Virus record (IMG/VR): IMGVR_UViG_2537562015_000010
Direction: 5' to 3' (one strand)
Source: a virus
Lineage: Duplodnaviria > Heunggongvirae > Uroviricota > Caudoviricetes
Length of the DNA: 27,511 nt
The position numbers and the translations under genes were made by a program. Of the stretch, positions 15,965 to 26,455 are shown one piece after another; within the stretch, counting starts at the first letter, position 1, and every line of letters begins with the position of its first letter. The notes under the pieces are model-generated. The model ran no database searches, was not told the origin of the DNA, and saw only the letters and a list, made by a program, of their open reading frames with translations.

Positions 15965-16342
15965 TTATCCGCGTATATACCTAAAGGACTGAGGTGGTAC
16001 AGCGCCAGGTATCAATTCATTAAGTGGAATTGGAGTATCATAGCGCAGAGGGTTTTTTACTTCTATTGCGAATCCCTTGTCTCTTTCTGAAAAATATTCA
16101 TCAAAAAAATCCCGCGTAATACCTGCATACTTTTTTGTCATATTCCATAATTCATCTGGCTGAGATGACAAAACCTTTTCGATTTCAAACTCACCAATTA
16201 CCTTTCCGACGGGCATTGTTGCATAAATAATAACCGCTCGGACTTCTTTGTTCCGAAAAATTGTCTTCCTGAATTCGAATTTTTTATATCCATTTAAAAT
16301 GGATTCAGCGAACTCTGGTTTAATCGACAATAAAATTTTCAT
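15965..16342 (-). CDS. ASCH (PUA-like) domain protein, cargo gene 2
   Basis: 125 aa; N-terminus MKILLSIKPEFAESILNGYKKFEFRK carries the ASCH signature G-x-K-x-x-E-x-R; AT-rich codon usage; ATG at 16340-16342 overlaps the upstream gene by 23 nt. Confidence 0.6.
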   Translation of the reverse strand: MKILLSIKPEFAESILNGYKKFEFRKTIFRNKEVRAVIIYATMPVGKVIGEFEIEKVLSSQPDELWNMTKKYAGITRDFFDEYFSERDKGFAIEVKNPLRYDTPIPLNELIPGAVPPQSFRYIRG

Positions 16343-17375
16343 TAACCTTTCCCGCGCTTAAAACAGCTTTGAAGTGAATATCACTTAACGTGAAGAACCC
16401 TGAATAGCTTGGAGTATAACCTAAAATACTCAACAATTCATCTCTAATTATTCTTTTTTGCAAAGGGAAATTGTAAGTTAACTTAATTACATGTGGAGGA
16501 TAACATCTGCTATAATAAGCATGTAATTCTTCATCAGAAAAAATACTGGCGCCTCCACAATAAGACTTAAACTCATCATATGATAAAAATTCTCGAATGT
16601 TTTTATACTCTTGTAATGTACAAACAGAAGTAACCACCGACCGATATTTCGCCGCTCCCTGTCCATCTGTCGTTCGATAAATAATTATATTATCTCCTGG
16701 CTGAAGAAGCTCCATGCCTTTCATCGCGCCAATATATATCTTATGAATACTATTAGTATAAGTAACATCTTCTAAAATAGAATCATTTTCATTTTTTAAA
16801 ATTGACTCCGGGAAAAGCCTTGAATGAAACTCAGGTTTAATGGCTAATAAAAAATTTCTTCCATTCATTTTTATCATAGGATAATTATTATAAAATGATG
16901 CTGCTGATGGCTTCCAGTTAAAATCCTTAAAGTAGACACCTTCACAACCGTTTTCCGTCTCAAGATTTTTTCTTGAACACAATTTAAAACCATAGCGTTC
17001 AAGTAAACGAATCAATCCTTGATGTTTGTCAAAGATAGTAACGTACACTTCCTGAATATCATGAGGCATTGCAAAATCAAATATTTTTCTTACAAATCTC
17101 TCCCCCATTTTCGTTCCACGAGCATCTATTTTAAATGTTCCGCATTTAAGACGTTTTTTCATAGGGAAAGATGGGGTCATGTCATTTAATTCTTCATTTT
17201 CAATTTTGAGGTATAAAAAACCATCTATTTTTCCATAGTCATCATAAGATACGTATGCTTTCTCGTTTCTTTTCTTTAAGAACCAGCTTTCAAAAGTTGG
17301 GTAGTCATTTTTAAGTGAGTCAAAAAAAACATCTGAGAGGTCAACCTTCCCAAATTCGACATAACTAAGAGACAT
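16320..17375 (-). CDS. Two-domain cargo protein: N-terminal GNAT-like acetyltransferase fold plus C-terminal divergent ASCH-like domain
   Basis: 351 aa; the segment RGTKMGERFVRKIFDFAMPHDIQEVYVTIFDKHQGLIRLLERYGFK resembles GNAT motifs A/B; the C-terminal half begins LLAIKPEF, paralogous to the downstream ASCH protein but lacking the G-x-K-x-x-E-x-R motif; ATG at 17373-17375 with AAGGA upstream; AT-rich. Confidence 0.5.
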   Translation of the reverse strand: MSLSYVEFGKVDLSDVFFDSLKNDYPTFESWFLKKRNEKAYVSYDDYGKIDGFLYLKIENEELNDMTPSFPMKKRLKCGTFKIDARGTKMGERFVRKIFDFAMPHDIQEVYVTIFDKHQGLIRLLERYGFKLCSRKNLETENGCEGVYFKDFNWKPSAASFYNNYPMIKMNGRNFLLAIKPEFHSRLFPESILKNENDSILEDVTYTNSIHKIYIGAMKGMELLQPGDNIIIYRTTDGQGAAKYRSVVTSVCTLQEYKNIREFLSYDEFKSYCGGASIFSDEELHAYYSRCYPPHVIKLTYNFPLQKRIIRDELLSILGYTPSYSGFFTLSDIHFKAVLSAGKVNENFIVD

Positions 17376-17589: not shown

Positions 17590-17901
17590 TCATTGAGGGA
17601 ACATGGCCTGTATATTCTTTTTCATCTGTGTAACGTTGTTGTTCTCTGTATCCTGCTGTGGTGATTTATTTCGTGGCGTTGGTGTGAGCGGCTGGCTGAA
17701 TCCGCTTTCAGGCCATTCAGCCAGCCAGTAAGCAAAGGCAGGATCGCTTTTAATGAGTGCCAGTCCAGCCAGAAAGGCCGCGCGTTGCGCGCGGCTACGT
17801 TCAGAGGCTGGCAGGCTGTCGAGGTAATTACACGCCTCCCGTTCACTATTGACGGCGGCTGGCTTCAGATAGAAACTTATCCGTCTGGTTGGTGTCGTCA
17901 T
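17590..17901 (-). CDS. parR: ParR-like centromere-binding protein (ribbon-helix-helix)
   Basis: ATG at 17899-17901 with AAGGAG 7 nt upstream, 5 nt after the parM stop; RISFYLKPAAVNSEREACNYLDSLPASERSRAQRAAFLAGLALIKSDP resembles plasmid R1 ParR (TIAFKLNPDV...LDSIPQGERSRLNRAALTAGLALYRQDP); the longer ORF-track form overlapping parM is rejected. Confidence 0.65.
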   Translation of the reverse strand: MTTPTRRISFYLKPAAVNSEREACNYLDSLPASERSRAQRAAFLAGLALIKSDPAFAYWLAEWPESGFSQPLTPTPRNKSPQQDTENNNVTQMKKNIQAMFPQ

Positions 17902-17905
17902 TGGT

Positions 17906-18865
17906 TTACTCCTTGTCCATTGCGTACAGCCCATTAACCAGAGCAAACTGTGGCACCCCGTCCGCGATGAAAGTCGCATTAACTCCGCAGGCTTCGCGGA
18001 TAGCGGGTGCCACAATCTCCGCCCCGCCACCGACAACCATCACCCGTCCGTAACCCGAAAAACCCGCCAGCGCGCGGATCACGCGTTGTTTCAGTGTTTC
18101 TTCCTTTTCACGAATAACCGCCATCAGGCTGGCGTAATGCGCGTCATTGTGGATGTGCTGGCGCAGCCAGGCTTCATCATGGCGATGTTCGATAATGGTA
18201 TTGGCGATGTGGTGACTGGTGCGCATACCGTTAGTGGCCATCACCGACAGTACGGCATCGGCCATCAGAGAAACGCCTACGTGTGGATCGCAAAACACCT
18301 GGCTGATACCTGCCAGTTGCCCCTGAACCTTTGCCACATCCAGCGTGGTTCCGCCCAAATCCACAATCAGCAGGGATTCAAACGGACTCATGTCAGCCAG
18401 TGCCTTAAAGCCAGCCGGAATGGATTCAGGCATAACCCGCACGTTACGGATAGTGAATGCTTCGCCGTTCTGGTACTCCACCGGGCGCATGACGTTCGCT
18501 TTTTTGCGGTTGATGTTGGCCATGTCCGGCTGTGCGTTTGTGTCGAAATATTCGCTCAGTGGCAGGGTGACAACCACATCCACCTCCTGTGGTGTGATGC
18601 CTGATTTGACCAGCGCGTGATGAATGGCAATGACATTCACATCGCTGTACTGGTATTGCGTGTCGGTCGTCTGGACAAAGCGATCGCTGACCGGATCAAA
18701 ACCATAGCGCACGCCATCAAGCATGTAGTTCGCGGGCTGCGTGCCACCGAACGGCGCAGACCATTCCGACTTGAAGCTGTTCGGGCTGATGGCGTTGCGG
18801 CGTTCGCCGTTCTCAGTCCATGCCAGCTTGATGTTGGTGGAGCCGTCATCGATACAAATTTTCAT
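17906..18865 (-). CDS. parM: ParM/StbA-like actin-type segregation ATPase
   Basis: 319 aa; N-terminus MKICIDDGSTNIKLAW...ISPNSFK...YQYSDVNVIAIHHAL resembles R1 ParM (MLVFIDDGSTNIKLQW...); ATG at 18863-18865 with AAGGA upstream. Confidence 0.8.
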   Translation of the reverse strand: MKICIDDGSTNIKLAWTENGERRNAISPNSFKSEWSAPFGGTQPANYMLDGVRYGFDPVSDRFVQTTDTQYQYSDVNVIAIHHALVKSGITPQEVDVVVTLPLSEYFDTNAQPDMANINRKKANVMRPVEYQNGEAFTIRNVRVMPESIPAGFKALADMSPFESLLIVDLGGTTLDVAKVQGQLAGISQVFCDPHVGVSLMADAVLSVMATNGMRTSHHIANTIIEHRHDEAWLRQHIHNDAHYASLMAVIREKEETLKQRVIRALAGFSGYGRVMVVGGGAEIVAPAIREACGVNATFIADGVPQFALVNGLYAMDKE

Positions 18866-22471: not shown

Positions 22472-22838
22472 GATATGTGGCCTCTTGTAGTAAGTTGTGA
22501 AAACTCACCATCCAGAGGTTCCAAGCTCGGGGTGGTGAGACGTACAGGGTTGGAACTACCGGCTACAAGAGATCCCGGCCCGACCGAAATCGGCCCCGTA
22601 CGCCCCACCATAATTCGTGTGCGAAAAAGACGTGGCAATACAGTACGCACAAAAAAACCGCTGGCGCGGTTGTGCGCTCTTGTAGTCTGCGGGGTTCCAA
22701 TCCCGGCACCCGTTTTATGAGGTGCAGCGAAAATGTAACCTGACTGATTGCGGCATGGCAAGCGGTTTTTTTGTGAGAACGGCATACTAAAAAATCCTGA
22801 TACTGCTCCGGCCAGCGGTTTTCACTGGCCGGGTTTAA
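22472..22838 (-). promoter_or_regulatory. Structured non-coding leader with repeated CTCTTGTAG motifs and terminator-like hairpins
   Basis: CTCTTGTAG at 22483-22491 and 22677-22685 with its reverse complement at 22563-22571; GGTTCCAA / TTGGAAC pairing inside; minus-strand hairpin plus U7 at about 22650-22672; strong hairpin at about 22810-22835. Confidence 0.35.
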
Positions 22839-23669
22839 TTACTTCACCGGAACAAACGGAACAGCGGTGTTACTGGTCATGTATTGCGGTAGCGTGCCGT
22901 TCCATTTGTTAATCGCTTCCAGCTCCATAACGCCGGGATTCTGGCGCAGAGCTTCACCGCGTAAACGAATGGCGTCGGCTTCAGCCTGGGCTTTTGTGCG
23001 AATGGCATCGGCCTGTCCGGCTGCTTCTGCGCGTAGCATGTTGGCTTCTGCTTCACGCTGCTTGACTTCCTGTTCGCGTTGCAGGGTTTTCTGGTTTGCC
23101 GTGACTTTGGCATTAATGCTGTCGATAACGGTTGGCGGGTATTCCGGCTTACCCACATAAGAGAGGCTCATTACCTGAATGCCGATAGGTGTCATTTCTG
23201 CCTGAATGTCTTTAAGTGCTGAATCCAGCAGTTCAGACTTGCCACCGTCGATAAATTTATCGGTGGTCATTTTGCTGGCCAGTCGGTTGAGTGCGTCGGC
23301 GATCTTCTGGCGCAGGTCAGTGTCGGTAATGTCATCCACGCCTTTGCGGTAGGTCTGAAACACTGTAGTAACTTTGGATGGATCAACCTTGTAGGCCACA
23401 CCGATGTGATAGCCGATGGTTGTGCCGTCACTCATCTGAAAGCTGAACGGCTCATCGTAGGTCTTCATTTGTTTGAAGGTCGGGAAGATGTAAACCTCGG
23501 TATTCCAGCCAGTCCAGTAGCGACCAACGCCAACCACTTCGCCAACGCCTTTGTCGTCGCCCAGCTTGTTGACTTTGATGCCCACATTACCTGGCTCAAC
23601 GCGATCGCAGCCAACCAGCAGGATGGCGGCAAAAAGCGGGAGAATCTGAAAGAGTCTGAATTTCTTCAT
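22839..23669 (-). CDS. SPFH/band-7 (prohibitin/HflC-like) lipoprotein
   Basis: 276 aa; signal peptide with lipobox LLVGC; central SPFH-like region and a C-terminal Ala/Glu/Arg-rich coiled coil (QREAEANMLRAEAAGQADAIRTKAQAEADAIRLRGEA). Confidence 0.7.
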   Translation of the reverse strand: MKKFRLFQILPLFAAILLVGCDRVEPGNVGIKVNKLGDDKGVGEVVGVGRYWTGWNTEVYIFPTFKQMKTYDEPFSFQMSDGTTIGYHIGVAYKVDPSKVTTVFQTYRKGVDDITDTDLRQKIADALNRLASKMTTDKFIDGGKSELLDSALKDIQAEMTPIGIQVMSLSYVGKPEYPPTVIDSINAKVTANQKTLQREQEVKQREAEANMLRAEAAGQADAIRTKAQAEADAIRLRGEALRQNPGVMELEAINKWNGTLPQYMTSNTAVPFVPVK

Positions 23670-23869
23670 TGTTTAATTTCCTTGATGTACTTACTGAAAA
23701 GGCGAACAACGCCTGCCGGGTACAGCATGGCAATGAAAATGCCCAGCAATACCAGGAAGGAGCTGTCTGATGAAATCATTCGGGGGAGTAGTCCTGCATA
23801 CAGAATGAGAGAAACGAGGACGCATACCAGCGCCCACATGTATGCGCGAAACCAGGTCTTTTTGTTCAT
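23666..23869 (-). CDS. Small two-transmembrane protein coupled to the SPFH lipoprotein
   Basis: 67 aa, two hydrophobic helices (WALVCVLVSLILYAGLL, FLVLLGIFIAMLYPAGVV); ATG at 23867-23869 with AAGGA upstream; 4-nt overlap with the SPFH gene start. Confidence 0.5.
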   Translation of the reverse strand: MNKKTWFRAYMWALVCVLVSLILYAGLLPRMISSDSSFLVLLGIFIAMLYPAGVVRLFSKYIKEIKQ

Positions 23870-24180: not shown

Positions 24181-24422
24181 GCTCTGGCTTCCTTCAGTAG
24201 CTGGTTAAACATGTTGGTAAGTGGATTGCCGCACCCGAACGGCATCGGGTTTATCTGGTAAGAAAAGCGACCGCCTGTTTTGCGCTCTTTTCTTATGACT
24301 GAACCGCTGCGCCAGAGTCGGCGTAACTCCGCATTAATGGCTGTGGTTGGGGTATTCAGTGCTGCGGCGATTTCTCCACCGCTACACCCCGGATTGGCGG
24401 CGATATAGTCCAGAATGGTCAT
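24177..24422 (-). CDS. Hypothetical early protein (81 aa), possible winged-helix DNA-binding protein
   Basis: ATG at 24420-24422 in an ATGA overlap; the segment GCSGGEIAAALNTPTTAINAELRRLWRSGSVIR looks like a helix-turn-helix. Confidence 0.4.
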   Translation of the reverse strand: MTILDYIAANPGCSGGEIAAALNTPTTAINAELRRLWRSGSVIRKERKTGGRFSYQINPMPFGCGNPLTNMFNQLLKEARA

Positions 24423-24622
24423 CTGCGTGACTCCTGTACCTGTCGGATAAGGTTCACCCGCACCACATTCGTGGCGCAGAAGTAAGTGCCGTCAGTGAGA
24501 TAGATGTGATGTGCATCCTTTTCTGAACGGTGTTTGTCGATTGTGGTAATCAGGCGTTCGTCGACTTCGTATTCACGTCCTCTGGAGGTAAAACGAACGA
24601 CAGGAAAATGCTTAATTGCCAT
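24419..24622 (-). CDS. Hypothetical early protein (67 aa)
   Basis: ATG at 24620-24622 preceded by AAGGAGG. Confidence 0.45.
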   Translation of the reverse strand: MAIKHFPVVRFTSRGREYEVDERLITTIDKHRSEKDAHHIYLTDGTYFCATNVVRVNLIRQVQESRR

Positions 24623-24708
24623 TACGCCTCCTTGGCGTGTGCGAATACCTCCGCGAATGCGGATTGTTTTTACATTTTCTTATTTAACCTGTGGTTTTAT
24701 TTGCTCTG

Positions 24709-24822
24709 TTATTCACCAGTGAAAAAGCGTTCAATCTTTTTTACTGAATGAATAATTCGCATAATCCCAATGGCGCAGGCCACCGAAATAATCAGAACAA
24801 GCCATGAGATAAATATACTCAT
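24709..24822 (-). CDS. Unannotated 37-aa hydrophobic peptide MSIFISWLVLIISVACAIGIMRIIHSVKKIERFFTGE
   Basis: Hand-translated; ATG at 24820-24822 forms an ATGA overlap with the stop of the upstream 80-aa gene; one predicted transmembrane helix and a basic tail; below the ORF-track size cutoff. Confidence 0.35.
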   Translation of the reverse strand: MSIFISWLVLIISVACAIGIMRIIHSVKKIERFFTGE

Positions 24823-25061
24823 GCAATATTCCCCAGCTTATACGGTTCAATATGTTCCCCGCATTCTGCGGCACAGATCAGCTCGGAAAGTTCGTTAAGT
24901 GCATCCAGATCATCAGCGTAAAAAGCCACGTCATACAGACTCCGGATTGCCCTGGTCAATGAGTCACGGGCTGCACGTTCAGCATGAGCGCCTGATGCAC
25001 TTAAGCGAAAATAAAAACGCTCAAGTGCTTTGTTAATGAGAGTTTTATATTCTTTGCCCAT
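24819..25061 (-). CDS. Hypothetical early protein (80 aa)
   Basis: ATG at 25059-25061; fits the operon spacing. Confidence 0.4.
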   Translation of the reverse strand: MGKEYKTLINKALERFYFRLSASGAHAERAARDSLTRAIRSLYDVAFYADDLDALNELSELICAAECGEHIEPYKLGNIA

Positions 25062-25072
25062 CGCAACGCCCT

Positions 25073-25360
25073 TTAATCTGCTTTCTGAATTTCAGTTTCT
25101 GAATCCATACAAATAATTTCGATATAGGGTTCATCGCCATTAACCTGGCGTGCCTTTTCAGCTTCGCTAATGATTTCTCGTACGGTCTGGTACGGAAGTT
25201 CCACAAGCAGTCGCGTGCCGTTCAGATAAACGTAAGTGGCTTCGTCGACTACGTTTTTACCCGCCGGAGCCACTCCATCAATAGCGGATGCGCGTAATAA
25301 CAGTTCACCGCGAAAATCAATAAAACGGATAAATACACCTTGTGCATGCTCTTTGGTCAT
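25073..25360 (-). CDS. Hypothetical early protein (95 aa)
   Basis: ATG at 25358-25360 (MTKEHAQGV...) with AGGTG upstream, 10 nt after the preceding stop; the ORF-track N-terminal extension is rejected. Confidence 0.4.
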   Translation of the reverse strand: MTKEHAQGVFIRFIDFRGELLLRASAIDGVAPAGKNVVDEATYVYLNGTRLLVELPYQTVREIISEAEKARQVNGDEPYIEIICMDSETEIQKAD

Positions 25361-25370
25361 AAAGCACCTG

Positions 25371-25712
25371 TTATAAATCAGCCTGTTTAATAAAACTTTG
25401 TCCGCGAAGCAGACGATCAACCGTGCGTAGTGCTTCGTATAATGTGAAATCCTGCCCGAACTGATTGTCGCCGCAGCTCAATGCAAAAATGCGGTTTCCG
25501 GTAAACGGATTGCGTGGGCATTTGTGAACCACGATTCCAGCTTTCTCAATCAGCCAGGCATGCTCGCCGATTTGTTTTACTGGGTGGCCATCCGGCGTTG
25601 CGTGTGTATCACTCAGGCTGTAGCGGATGTTGCTGCGTGATGCACTGGTAGCGAAACGGTTAGCCTGGCGTTCAGCCCCATTACGAAAGCGTGAATTACG
25701 TTGCTGTTTCAT
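25371..25712 (-). CDS. Hypothetical early protein (113 aa)
   Basis: ATG at 25710-25712 with GGGAG upstream; first gene after cox. Confidence 0.4.
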   Translation of the reverse strand: MKQQRNSRFRNGAERQANRFATSASRSNIRYSLSDTHATPDGHPVKQIGEHAWLIEKAGIVVHKCPRNPFTGNRIFALSCGDNQFGQDFTLYEALRTVDRLLRGQSFIKQADL

Positions 25713-26072: not shown

Positions 26073-26104
26073 TTTGGGGTATTTCTTGCGACGGATGCCC
26101 CAAA
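26073..26104. promoter_or_regulatory. Candidate operator in the cox-C intergenic switch region
   Basis: Inverted repeat TTTGGGG (26073-26079) / CCCCAAA (26098-26104) with an 18-bp spacer, in the 95-bp divergent intergenic region where the P2 Pe/Pc promoters lie. Confidence 0.3.
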
Positions 26105-26152
26105 TCAAACTCATTTGTATAAACATTAATACAGACGTTGGAGAATTGCAAC

Positions 26153-26455
26153 ATGCGTATGACTATTGGAGAGCGCATAAAAATCATGCGTGAAAGCGAG
26201 AGACTTACTAGCCTCCCGGATACAGCAAAAATGCTTGGTTTAAACCGTGATGCTCTGTGGAGATATGAAAGCGGTAAAACTATCCCTAATGCTGAAGTAA
26301 TTGAGCAAATACTAAACAACCCCAGATTTGAGAAATATGCGTTGTGGTTTATGACTGGGAAAATTGCGCCTGAATCCGGGCAGATAGCTCCGGCTCTCGC
26401 ACACTATGGGCAAGAGCCAACGGACTTACCCCCATCCGAAAGGAAAATTGGCTAA
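26153..26455 (+). CDS. C: Immunity repressor, P2 C-like
   Basis: FEKYALWFMTGKIAPESGQIAPALAHYGQ matches P2 C (FTKYTLWFMTNQIAPESGQIAPALAHFGQ); preferred start ATG 26153 (alternative 26159; the ORF track begins at TTG 26138). Confidence 0.85.
   Translation: MRMTIGERIKIMRESERLTSLPDTAKMLGLNRDALWRYESGKTIPNAEVIEQILNNPRFEKYALWFMTGKIAPESGQIAPALAHYGQEPTDLPPSERKIG

Follow-up and report, generated by a model that had tools for sequence, protein, structure and literature searches.

A small gene overlapping DUF4754 in the early operon of P88-like prophages is maintained by selection and encodes a predicted single-span inner-membrane protein

The window analysed here, a stretch of 27,511 nucleotides, is a P88-like prophage of E. 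coli (genus Xuanwuvirus, P2-type Peduoviridae), and its early region raises the question of whether an open reading frame (ORF) of only 37 codons, which begins on the last bases of a DUF4754 gene, is a gene at all and, if it is, what its product might do. The ORF comprises 37 codons plus a TAA stop, lies at 24709..24822 on the minus strand and has the product MSIFISWLVLIISVACAIGIMRIIHSVKKIERFFTGE. The original prediction, which described it as an unannotated membrane peptide translationally coupled to the preceding early gene, had these coordinates exactly right; it did not give the strand. Note that a length of 37 codons is by itself unremarkable, as 88 ORFs with a length of 20 aa or more lie wholly or partly in the last 5 kb of the window. 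The small ORF stands above chance because it is conserved, with an open frame, a start/stop junction that is kept and an excess of synonymous changes that is specific to its frame.

The description of the ORF as unannotated holds only for the six-frame track from which it was made, whose length cut-off accounts for the label, since RefSeq has the gene. In the RefSeq record of phage P88 the small ORF is SF19_gp07 (YP_009113050.1, "membrane protein"), and PGAP annotation lists it as WP_000021656.1 in an E. coli genome that is 99.7% identical and WP_000021655.1 in the O157:H7 strain 86-24, in both cases as a "hypothetical protein". The ORF of the window and P88 gp07/WP_000021656.1 are the same gene, in the same place after DUF4754 and with the same 4-nt overlap, and nothing differs between them. 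The corresponding UniRef entry, A0A069FJJ5, is named "uncharacterized / prophage membrane protein". The small ORF is thus an already catalogued hypothetical or membrane protein without an assigned function, of the familiar class of small membrane proteins that phages encode. Moreover, a literature search found no mention of either DUF4754 or the peptide, neither the P88 paper nor those that name Xuanwuvirus treat the peptide, and the peptide is not among the translated small ORFs in the supplements of Ribo-seq studies of O157:H7 Sakai.

The gene is nevertheless widespread. More than 1000 contigs carry the exact peptide sequence, which belongs to a 90% cluster of 183 members, and tblastn finds it with 100% identity in P88 and the Citrobacter phage Shae_phiSM. 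When 5426 complete E. coli genomes were searched with the 701 bp around it (24400-25100 of the window), 1366 of them, O157:H7 strains included, had a match, with identities of 80-99.7%. A scan of genome contigs returned only two loci, one in E. albertii and one, with a DUF4754 of 98% identity, on a contig that bears the label Vagococcus.

The small ORF is the fifth gene of a minus-strand operon led by a cox-type gene. This first gene (PF10743; 25731..26126, with a PGAP start at about 26057) is divergent from a C-type repressor gene on the plus strand (26138-26455), past which the integrase gene begins, also on the plus strand (from 26489). On the minus strand the cox-type gene is followed by the DUF4761 gene (25371-25712), which lies two genes 5' of DUF4754 in the same operon, by the gene for a phrog_3800 protein (ORF 25073-25420, for which PGAP calls a shorter gene of 279 nt), by the DUF4754 gene (24819..25061), by the small ORF itself and then by a non-coding gap of 86 nt (24623..24708). 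Past the gap the order continues with phrog_3459, a MarR-type wHTH gene, an Ead/Ea22-like gene and a gene for a 67-aa membrane protein, after which come an SPFH lipoprotein gene, the C4 and isrK RNAs, and gpA. The architecture is the same as that of P2 (int-C / cox-orf78-B-terminator-...-A) and of 186 (int-cI / apl-cII-fil-dhr-tR1-...-A).

By analogy with those phages, the operon is likely to be repressed by the C-type repressor in a lysogen, so that the peptide would be made early after infection or induction. A scan for internal promoters found a single weak match (9/12, with 3.2 expected by chance) and nothing convincing, and a consensus promoter scan of the region did not find Pe. Because the operon is led by a cox-type gene and stands opposite the C-type repressor gene, the small ORF should be silent in a stable lysogen, which argues against a role in exclusion by a protein expressed in the lysogen and also against testing the peptide in an uninduced lysogen.

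The junction between the small ORF and the gene before it is an ATGA (24819..24822, minus strand), in which the ATG of the small ORF (24822-24820) shares bases with the TGA (24821-24819) of the 80-aa DUF4754 gene. Reading the sequence therefore bears out the overlap that had been predicted. An SD-like GGGGA lies 8 nt 5' of the ATG, within the 3' end of the DUF4754 gene (24830..24834, minus strand). It had also been said that neighbouring early genes overlap in the same manner, and by their ORF coordinates three other junctions of the operon do have 4-nt overlaps (67aa/MarR, MarR/Ead and membrane/SPFH), of which only 67aa/MarR was read as ATGA in the sequence.

To judge whether the frame is kept, we used the DUF4754 gene as an anchor and retrieved 166 related loci, with variants down to 44% DUF4754 identity; scans of viral contigs were repeated with divergent DUF4754 queries to widen the sample of loci. 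In all 167 DUF4754-anchored sequences the frame that starts in the overlap remains open; among them are 72 different versions of the DNA, which encode 55 different proteins with lengths of 30, 37, 41 or 45 residues. Conservation of the frame in related prophages had been proposed as a check in the original prediction, and at every one of these loci the frame is conserved. The junction is ATGA at 166 of the 167 loci and GTGA at the remaining one. Note that the A of the ATG doubles as the third position of the final sense codon of DUF4754, where C or T would be synonymous, yet neither is ever found there. In the loci examined the small ORF is always directly 3' of DUF4754, and the pair is never separated in the sample.

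The pattern of substitution is that of a coding sequence. Over codons 1-29, pairwise pN/pS is 0.27 in the frame of the small ORF; both shifted sense readings and two of the three antisense ones give 1.13-1.30, and the remaining antisense frame, rc1, gives 0.43, a value in which the synonymous excess mirrors that of the sense frame. The DUF4754 gene itself has a pN/pS of 0.20. Parsimony on a neighbour-joining tree counted 99 synonymous and 97 nonsynonymous changes against a synonymous-site fraction of 0.21 (binomial P = 1.4e-20); these counts are inflated by homoplasy and recombination, with the ratio still informative. Stop codons play no part in any of the 196 changes, where about 4.4% of possible changes would make one. 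The core of the ORF is without indels, and even close relatives differ in the length of the adjacent gap (85-87 nt). Judged by these comparisons of sequence, the small ORF is a genuine, selectively maintained protein-coding gene under purifying selection, in agreement with the prediction that it is a real gene.

Nucleotide diversity gives a further view of the locus. The peptide ORF, whose pi is 0.036, is the least diverse segment of its neighbourhood (DUF4754, 0.081; gap, 0.052; next gene, 0.073). Its pS is also lower than that of DUF4754 (0.18 versus 0.32), and part of the conservation could therefore be at the level of the nucleotide sequence or reflect recombination history.

Relatives at a greater distance are few. 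When 1.84 billion representative proteins were searched exhaustively with HMMER, only nine representative clusters (at the 50% identity level) were returned, whose proteins are 22-59 aa long and share 47-95% identity with the query. Two of these clusters (54% and 57% identity; 41 aa) were traced to contigs, as loci L167 and L168. In both, the peptide is encoded directly 3' of an 80-aa DUF4754-type gene with the ATGA 4-nt overlap kept, in a P2-type operon of the order int - C - cox ... DUF4761 - DUF4754 - peptide ... gpA. The DUF4754 proteins of these two loci are about 30% identical to that of the window, as judged by eye from sequences set side by side, so that by sequence identity the peptide is more conserved than its DUF4754 partner. 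A G-rich SD-like run is kept 7-8 nt before the ATG in each (GAAGGGGAAAC-ATG in L167 and GAGGAGCTGGC-ATG in L168), though the C-terminal DUF4754 residues that it encodes differ.

The features of a coupled gene pair that can be read from sequence, namely an overlap, an SD inside the upstream gene and conservation of both, are all present here. We infer that ribosomes finishing DUF4754 re-initiate on the small ORF. The coupling to the preceding gene that had been predicted fits with the retention of the ATGA and of the SD-like run in the face of only about 30% DUF4754 identity. Note, however, that 4-nt overlaps are common in this operon, with four such junctions, and coupling alone thus does not prove that DUF4754 and the peptide form a complex.

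What kind of protein is encoded? Residues 3-21 form a predicted transmembrane helix, IFISWLVLIISVACAIGIM (24760..24816, minus strand), which was assigned from hydropathy and AF2 and has a mean Kyte-Doolittle value of 2.68 over its 19 residues and summed Hessa values of -2.9 kcal/mol. Codons 22-37 (24712..24759, minus strand) encode a basic, amphipathic juxtamembrane tail, RIIHSVKKIERFFTGE, with +4/-2 charges and a hydrophobic moment of 1.98. AF2, run with an alignment of 15 sequences, models residues 2-35 as one continuous helix (pLDDT 88). Hydropathy, charges and the single modelled helix all agree with the architecture of one hydrophobic helix plus a basic tail that had been read from the window at the outset.

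Basic residues are absent before the hydrophobic segment (residues 1-7 contain no K or R) and number four after it. It is well established, as the positive-inside rule, that such residues tend to mark the cytoplasmic side, and from this rule and the placement of basic residues only after the hydrophobic segment follows a predicted N-out/C-in topology. The sequence holds what is expected of an integral inner-membrane protein so oriented, with about 19 or more hydrophobic residues and the positive charges on the cytoplasmic side. The product would accordingly be a single-span inner-membrane protein with a near-absent periplasmic N-tail and a cytoplasmic basic tail, and, given that its N-tail is short and uncharged, it probably inserts into the membrane without a cleaved signal peptide. 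Across the homologues S6, W7, L10 and I24 are invariant and F4, I11, G19, I20, R22, I23 and K28 nearly so, and substitutions within the helix are conservative (I/V/L/M and A/V/T).

The end of the protein behaves differently from its core. The last 4-8 residues are swapped among alternative tails (FFTGE, FFSDE, FFTEE, FFTDK or FSLxNNxxNKTxx), or the ORF stops after residue 30. These alternative tails correlate with different downstream genes, and at least six unrelated families follow the ORF across phages; DUF4754 and the peptide stay constant while the downstream gene varies. The association of tails with different downstream genes places the ORF at the 3' edge of a conserved block, with a recombination junction at its end. 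The 86-nt gap, which is a mosaic junction in relatives, contains a conserved hairpin, TCCGC-N4-GCGGA (24650-24663, minus strand), and a second hairpin that covers the SD of the next gene. A search for RNA families over the ORF and the gap gave only sub-threshold chance matches to eukaryotic families. On the opposite strand, a terminator-like hairpin lies 45 nt past the stop codon of the small ORF.

Disrupted alleles also exist in nature. At loci L174-L177, which represent about 24-29 contigs from several independent assemblies, a 1-nt deletion removes one T of the TTT at codon 4, and the frame from the ATG stops after nine codons, with all neighbouring genes intact. A second disruption may underlie a gene call of 28 aa that is found on 75 contigs. 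Disrupted alleles are a small minority, as intact forms are found on more than 2,500 contigs among the matches listed in the cluster. The original prediction had named a frame broken in close relatives beside conserved flanking genes as the observation that would speak against it. Such a state is indeed found in one minority lineage; in the great majority of loci it is not. The frameshift at L174-L177 beside intact neighbours indicates that the gene is dispensable for carriage of the prophage, and the existence of natural frameshift and tail-swap variants points to an accessory function.

Family searches provided no identity for the product. The peptide matched no profile in Pfam, PHROGs, NCBIfam or PADLOC, and a sequence-profile search against the PDB gave only chance matches (E >0.5). 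Its partner DUF4754 (PF15946, phrog_2549) is a predicted three-helix bundle of 80 aa (three helices in the AF2 model, pLDDT 89.5) that had no match in PADLOC-DB or in the defence and exclusion categories of PHROG, and Foldseek searches of its model against the PDB and BFVD found nothing with E <0.5. Peptides of this type had been suggested in the original prediction to act as membrane-depolarising toxins, cell-division modulators or injection inhibitors. Profile and sequence searches found no homology of the peptide to toxin, division-modulator or injection-inhibitor families, and these roles are speculation.

One comparison is by position. The Fil (cell-division inhibitor) and Dhr (host replication inhibitor) proteins of 186 are small accessory proteins encoded at an equivalent place in the early operon, downstream of a cox/apl-type gene and just before the first intergenic break (tR1); the peptide is likewise encoded just before the first break. 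They differ from the peptide in having no sequence relationship to it and, by eye, no N-terminal hydrophobic stretch comparable to its own, and the partner genes differ as well, being cII in 186 and DUF4761 plus DUF4754 here. Homology to 186 Fil (PF10893/DUF2724), with its conserved core PSFASLL...GWI...GKRWHP..., was rejected, as BLASTP gave no alignment, hhalign gave a probability of 0.4% over 6 columns and there was no Pfam match. A likeness seen by eye (IMRIIHSVKK compared to IIRIVHFVIK) falls in the variable, non-conserved tail of Fil.

Among other small membrane proteins, AcrZ, MgrB, MgtS and CydX are chromosomally encoded single-span regulators of about 30-50 aa that bind larger inner-membrane proteins, and their partners are known. 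The peptide resembles them in its size, its one transmembrane helix and its short charged tail; it differs in being phage-borne and operon-coupled to the soluble DUF4754, and no sequence similarity to them was found. Phages, too, encode small proteins whose site of action is the inner membrane, the divisome or their vicinity, among them HK97 gp15 and T4 Imm, which mediate superinfection exclusion, and lambda Kil, an early inhibitor of the host. Exclusion proteins of prophages are expressed in the lysogen, and lambda Kil belongs to the early lytic operon. All of these are small phage proteins, as is the peptide, but there is no homology between them, and the peptide is encoded in a cox-led lytic operon.

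The reading that we favour, and to which we assign a probability of roughly 0.55, is that the small ORF is a maintained, coupled gene whose product is a predicted membrane partner of DUF4754, or a binder of a host inner-membrane protein, made during early lytic growth. By comparison with Pe of P2 and pR of 186, an early promoter under the control of the repressor would drive expression. As translation of DUF4754 ends, ribosomes would re-initiate at the ATG of the small ORF, and the 37-aa product would insert in the inner membrane in the N-out/C-in orientation with its basic tail in the cytoplasm. There, and we say this with low certainty, it may sit in the membrane as a partner of the soluble three-helix DUF4754 or serve as its anchor, or else bind, as a small protein, to one of the inner-membrane proteins of the host. 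Contact could be made through the conserved S6-W7...S13...G19 face of the helix together with R22 and K28 of the tail, and the peptide would in this manner modify a process of the host envelope during early lytic growth. A bolder extension of this model, which we regard as tentative and rather unlikely, is that DUF4761, DUF4754 and the peptide make up an unrecognised membrane-targeted host-takeover module of P88-like phages, in which the peptide tethers DUF4754 and binds a host envelope protein (a divisome, transport or protease component). Such a module would fill the slot of cII-fil-dhr in 186 and of orf78-B in P2, and a specific contact with the host envelope would account for the stronger conservation of the peptide relative to its partner.

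We weighed several other explanations, which are taken here in decreasing order of likelihood. The peptide might be a stand-alone host-takeover effector, a putative agent of membrane damage, depolarisation or a division block that is analogous to Fil/Dhr or to lambda Kil and for which DUF4754 is irrelevant. Its place, which matches that of fil and dhr as the last small genes before a break (tR1 in 186, the terminator after B in P2), argues for this, and so do the small or polar residues on one face of the helix (S6, S13, C16/A17 and G19), which are compatible with oligomerisation, and the fact that some prophages dispense with the peptide, as is often the case for accessory toxic genes. We nonetheless find an effector of this kind doubtful, since the homology to Fil is missing in both BLASTP and hhalign, no toxin, defence or PHROG family matches, invariant residues at S6, W7, L10 and I24 exceed the needs of a generic pore-former, and the strict linkage to DUF4754 across deep divergence is left unexplained. 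Far less probable is an exclusion protein or injection inhibitor made in the lysogen in the manner of HK97 gp15 or T4 Imm. This was proposed in the original prediction and is compatible with a small inner-membrane architecture, but the gene is the fifth of a cox-led operon, outside the known lysogenic-conversion slots of P2-type phages, the one weak promoter-like match 5' of it is fewer than chance expects, and neither PADLOC nor PHROG gives a match to an exclusion family.

It is also improbable that the sequence of the peptide is irrelevant, with the ORF being translated against polarity or to position ribosomes near the structured gap, or being a conserved frame without function. The ORF is the last before a structured and conserved gap, its C-terminal tail is freely swapped or shortened, natural frameshift variants occur and synonymous diversity is low, all of which would fit. 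Against this stand a synonymous excess that is specific to the frame of the small ORF, replacements that are conservative and keep the transmembrane helix, polar and aromatic residues that are invariant, and a peptide identity of 54-57% where that of DUF4754 is about 30% by eye. An exported product, either a 20-aa periplasmic peptide freed by cleavage of a signal peptide at residues 1-17 (A15-C16-A17) or a lipoprotein with the lipobox ISVAC, is highly improbable, although ISVA-C16 fits a PROSITE-type lipobox and A-C-A fits the AXA motif of signal peptidase. We rejected both forms, given that there is no basic N-region, that the four basic residues after the hydrophobic segment favour N-out/C-in, and that homologues carry S, F or M in place of Cys16 and any of A, V, I, L, F and T at position 15. 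Last comes a type I toxin-antitoxin system of the Hok/Ldr/TisB/Ibs type, that is, a small hydrophobic toxin under a cis-antisense RNA, to which the hydrophobic nature of the peptide, the opposite-strand hairpin and the structured gap might point. This we likewise rejected and consider highly improbable. In plus-strand terms the terminator on the antisense strand is upstream of the ORF, so that a transcript terminated at that site would miss it altogether; no convincing promoter serves the gene alone, which is coupled inside an operon; and Rfam gives no antitoxin or toxin-associated RNA.

With these alternatives set against it, a maintained and coupled gene for a predicted membrane partner of DUF4754, or for a binder of a host inner-membrane protein, stands as the best explanation of the locus. 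The original reading of the window picked out a true small gene from raw sequence, and its follow-up is in the main a check on the quality of that reading. For the phages themselves, the peptide is among the most conserved pieces of the early region of a very common prophage, and if it does target a membrane process of the host, P2-type phages would have one more effector, a small protein, in their early programme.

A natural frameshift allele of the small ORF that encodes the 37-aa membrane peptide (24709-24822, minus strand) was found in related loci L174-L177. In these loci a 1-nt deletion in codon 4, TTT, at position ~1500 (window ~24811) shifts the reading frame of the small ORF, and the early genes that flank it are all intact. 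The allele is confined to one E. coli lineage, represented by ~24-29 contigs, and gene callers use an ATT start that yields a product of 34 aa at the frameshifted ORF. An alternative frame that is +2 relative to that of the small ORF is open on the same strand between positions 24731 and 24874, and remains open in 36 of the 54 variants. At least one (P0052) of the database proteins of 109-116 aa that are annotated as DUF4754 is a DUF4754 protein frameshifted into this +2 frame. Because pN/pS for the +2 frame is ~1.2, the frame is taken not to evolve under coding selection.

The small ORF ends, on its 3' side, at a mosaic junction, as judged by comparing window positions 24709-24740 and the sequence downstream across loci L005-L166. 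Depending on the phage, at least six unrelated gene families lie downstream of the small ORF in these loci, with products of 67, 84/105, 92, 122-138, 162, and 193 aa, and the final 4-8 codons of the peptide are exchanged together with the downstream gene family. A Pfam search with the 136-138-aa insert found at this site in O157:H7 returned no match. (Note that one of the compared loci, L005, is from a contig labelled Vagococcus sp., NZ_JBQPOM010000071.1; its DUF4754 gene is 98% identical to that of E. coli, and contamination, or an enterobacterial contig given the wrong label, is the probable explanation.)

Following the small ORF is a gap of 86 nt (24623-24708) that is structured by comparison with shuffled sequence, the folding z-score being -3.3 on either strand. 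The gap contains a hairpin, TCCGC-N4-GCGGA (24650-24663), with a variable loop and an invariant stem, that is found in 118 of the 167 DUF4754-anchored loci and is also present in the two divergent loci L167 and L168. On the plus strand, which is antisense to the operon, the hairpin is followed by TTGTTTTT and resembles an intrinsic terminator, whereas on the strand of the operon it is followed by a second hairpin that spans the SD of the next gene. By its position the gap corresponds to phage 186 tR1, and likewise to the P2 terminator that follows gene B.

Further upstream in the early operon, a 10-nt inverted repeat, TTTGGGGTAT/ATGCCCCAAA, with a 12-nt spacer (26073-26104) separates the start codon of the cox-type gene from the region presumed to hold the early promoter, and is possibly an operator or a Cox-binding site. 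Neither Pe nor Pc was detected around 26073-26104 when the sequence was scanned for consensus promoters. Also within the operon, a 4-nt overlap joins an SPFH/Band-7 domain gene to the gene for a membrane protein of 67 aa (phrog_1130, moron category) (22839-23869, minus strand), an arrangement reminiscent of NfeD/SPFH pairs. The pair is present in P88, where the RefSeq record labels the SPFH/Band-7 counterpart a lipoprotein, and is absent from several relatives. Immediately 3' of the SPFH gene, Rfam identifies a C4 antisense RNA (79 bits) adjacent to an isrK Hfq-binding RNA (71 bits) at 22528-22725 on the minus strand, a pair that resembles the isrK/C4 anti-repressor control module of P1/P7 and the Salmonella Gifsy prophages. 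The matching site in a near-identical genome is annotated by PGAP as an "ash family" pseudogene.

The variable stretch bounded by the portal gene and gpA is known in P2-type phages as a hotspot for defence genes. Within it, two overlapping minus-strand genes (15965-17375) match a candidate defence system of PADLOC, PDC-M11 (PDC-M11A, E = 4e-131; PDC-M11B, E = 6e-51, the latter match carrying an ASCH domain). Adjoining gpA, minus-strand genes (17590-18865) encode a Plasmid_stab_B protein and a ParM/StbA actin-like segregation ATPase with matches to PF06406 and PF21523; these constitute a plasmid-type partition cassette within a P2-type prophage.
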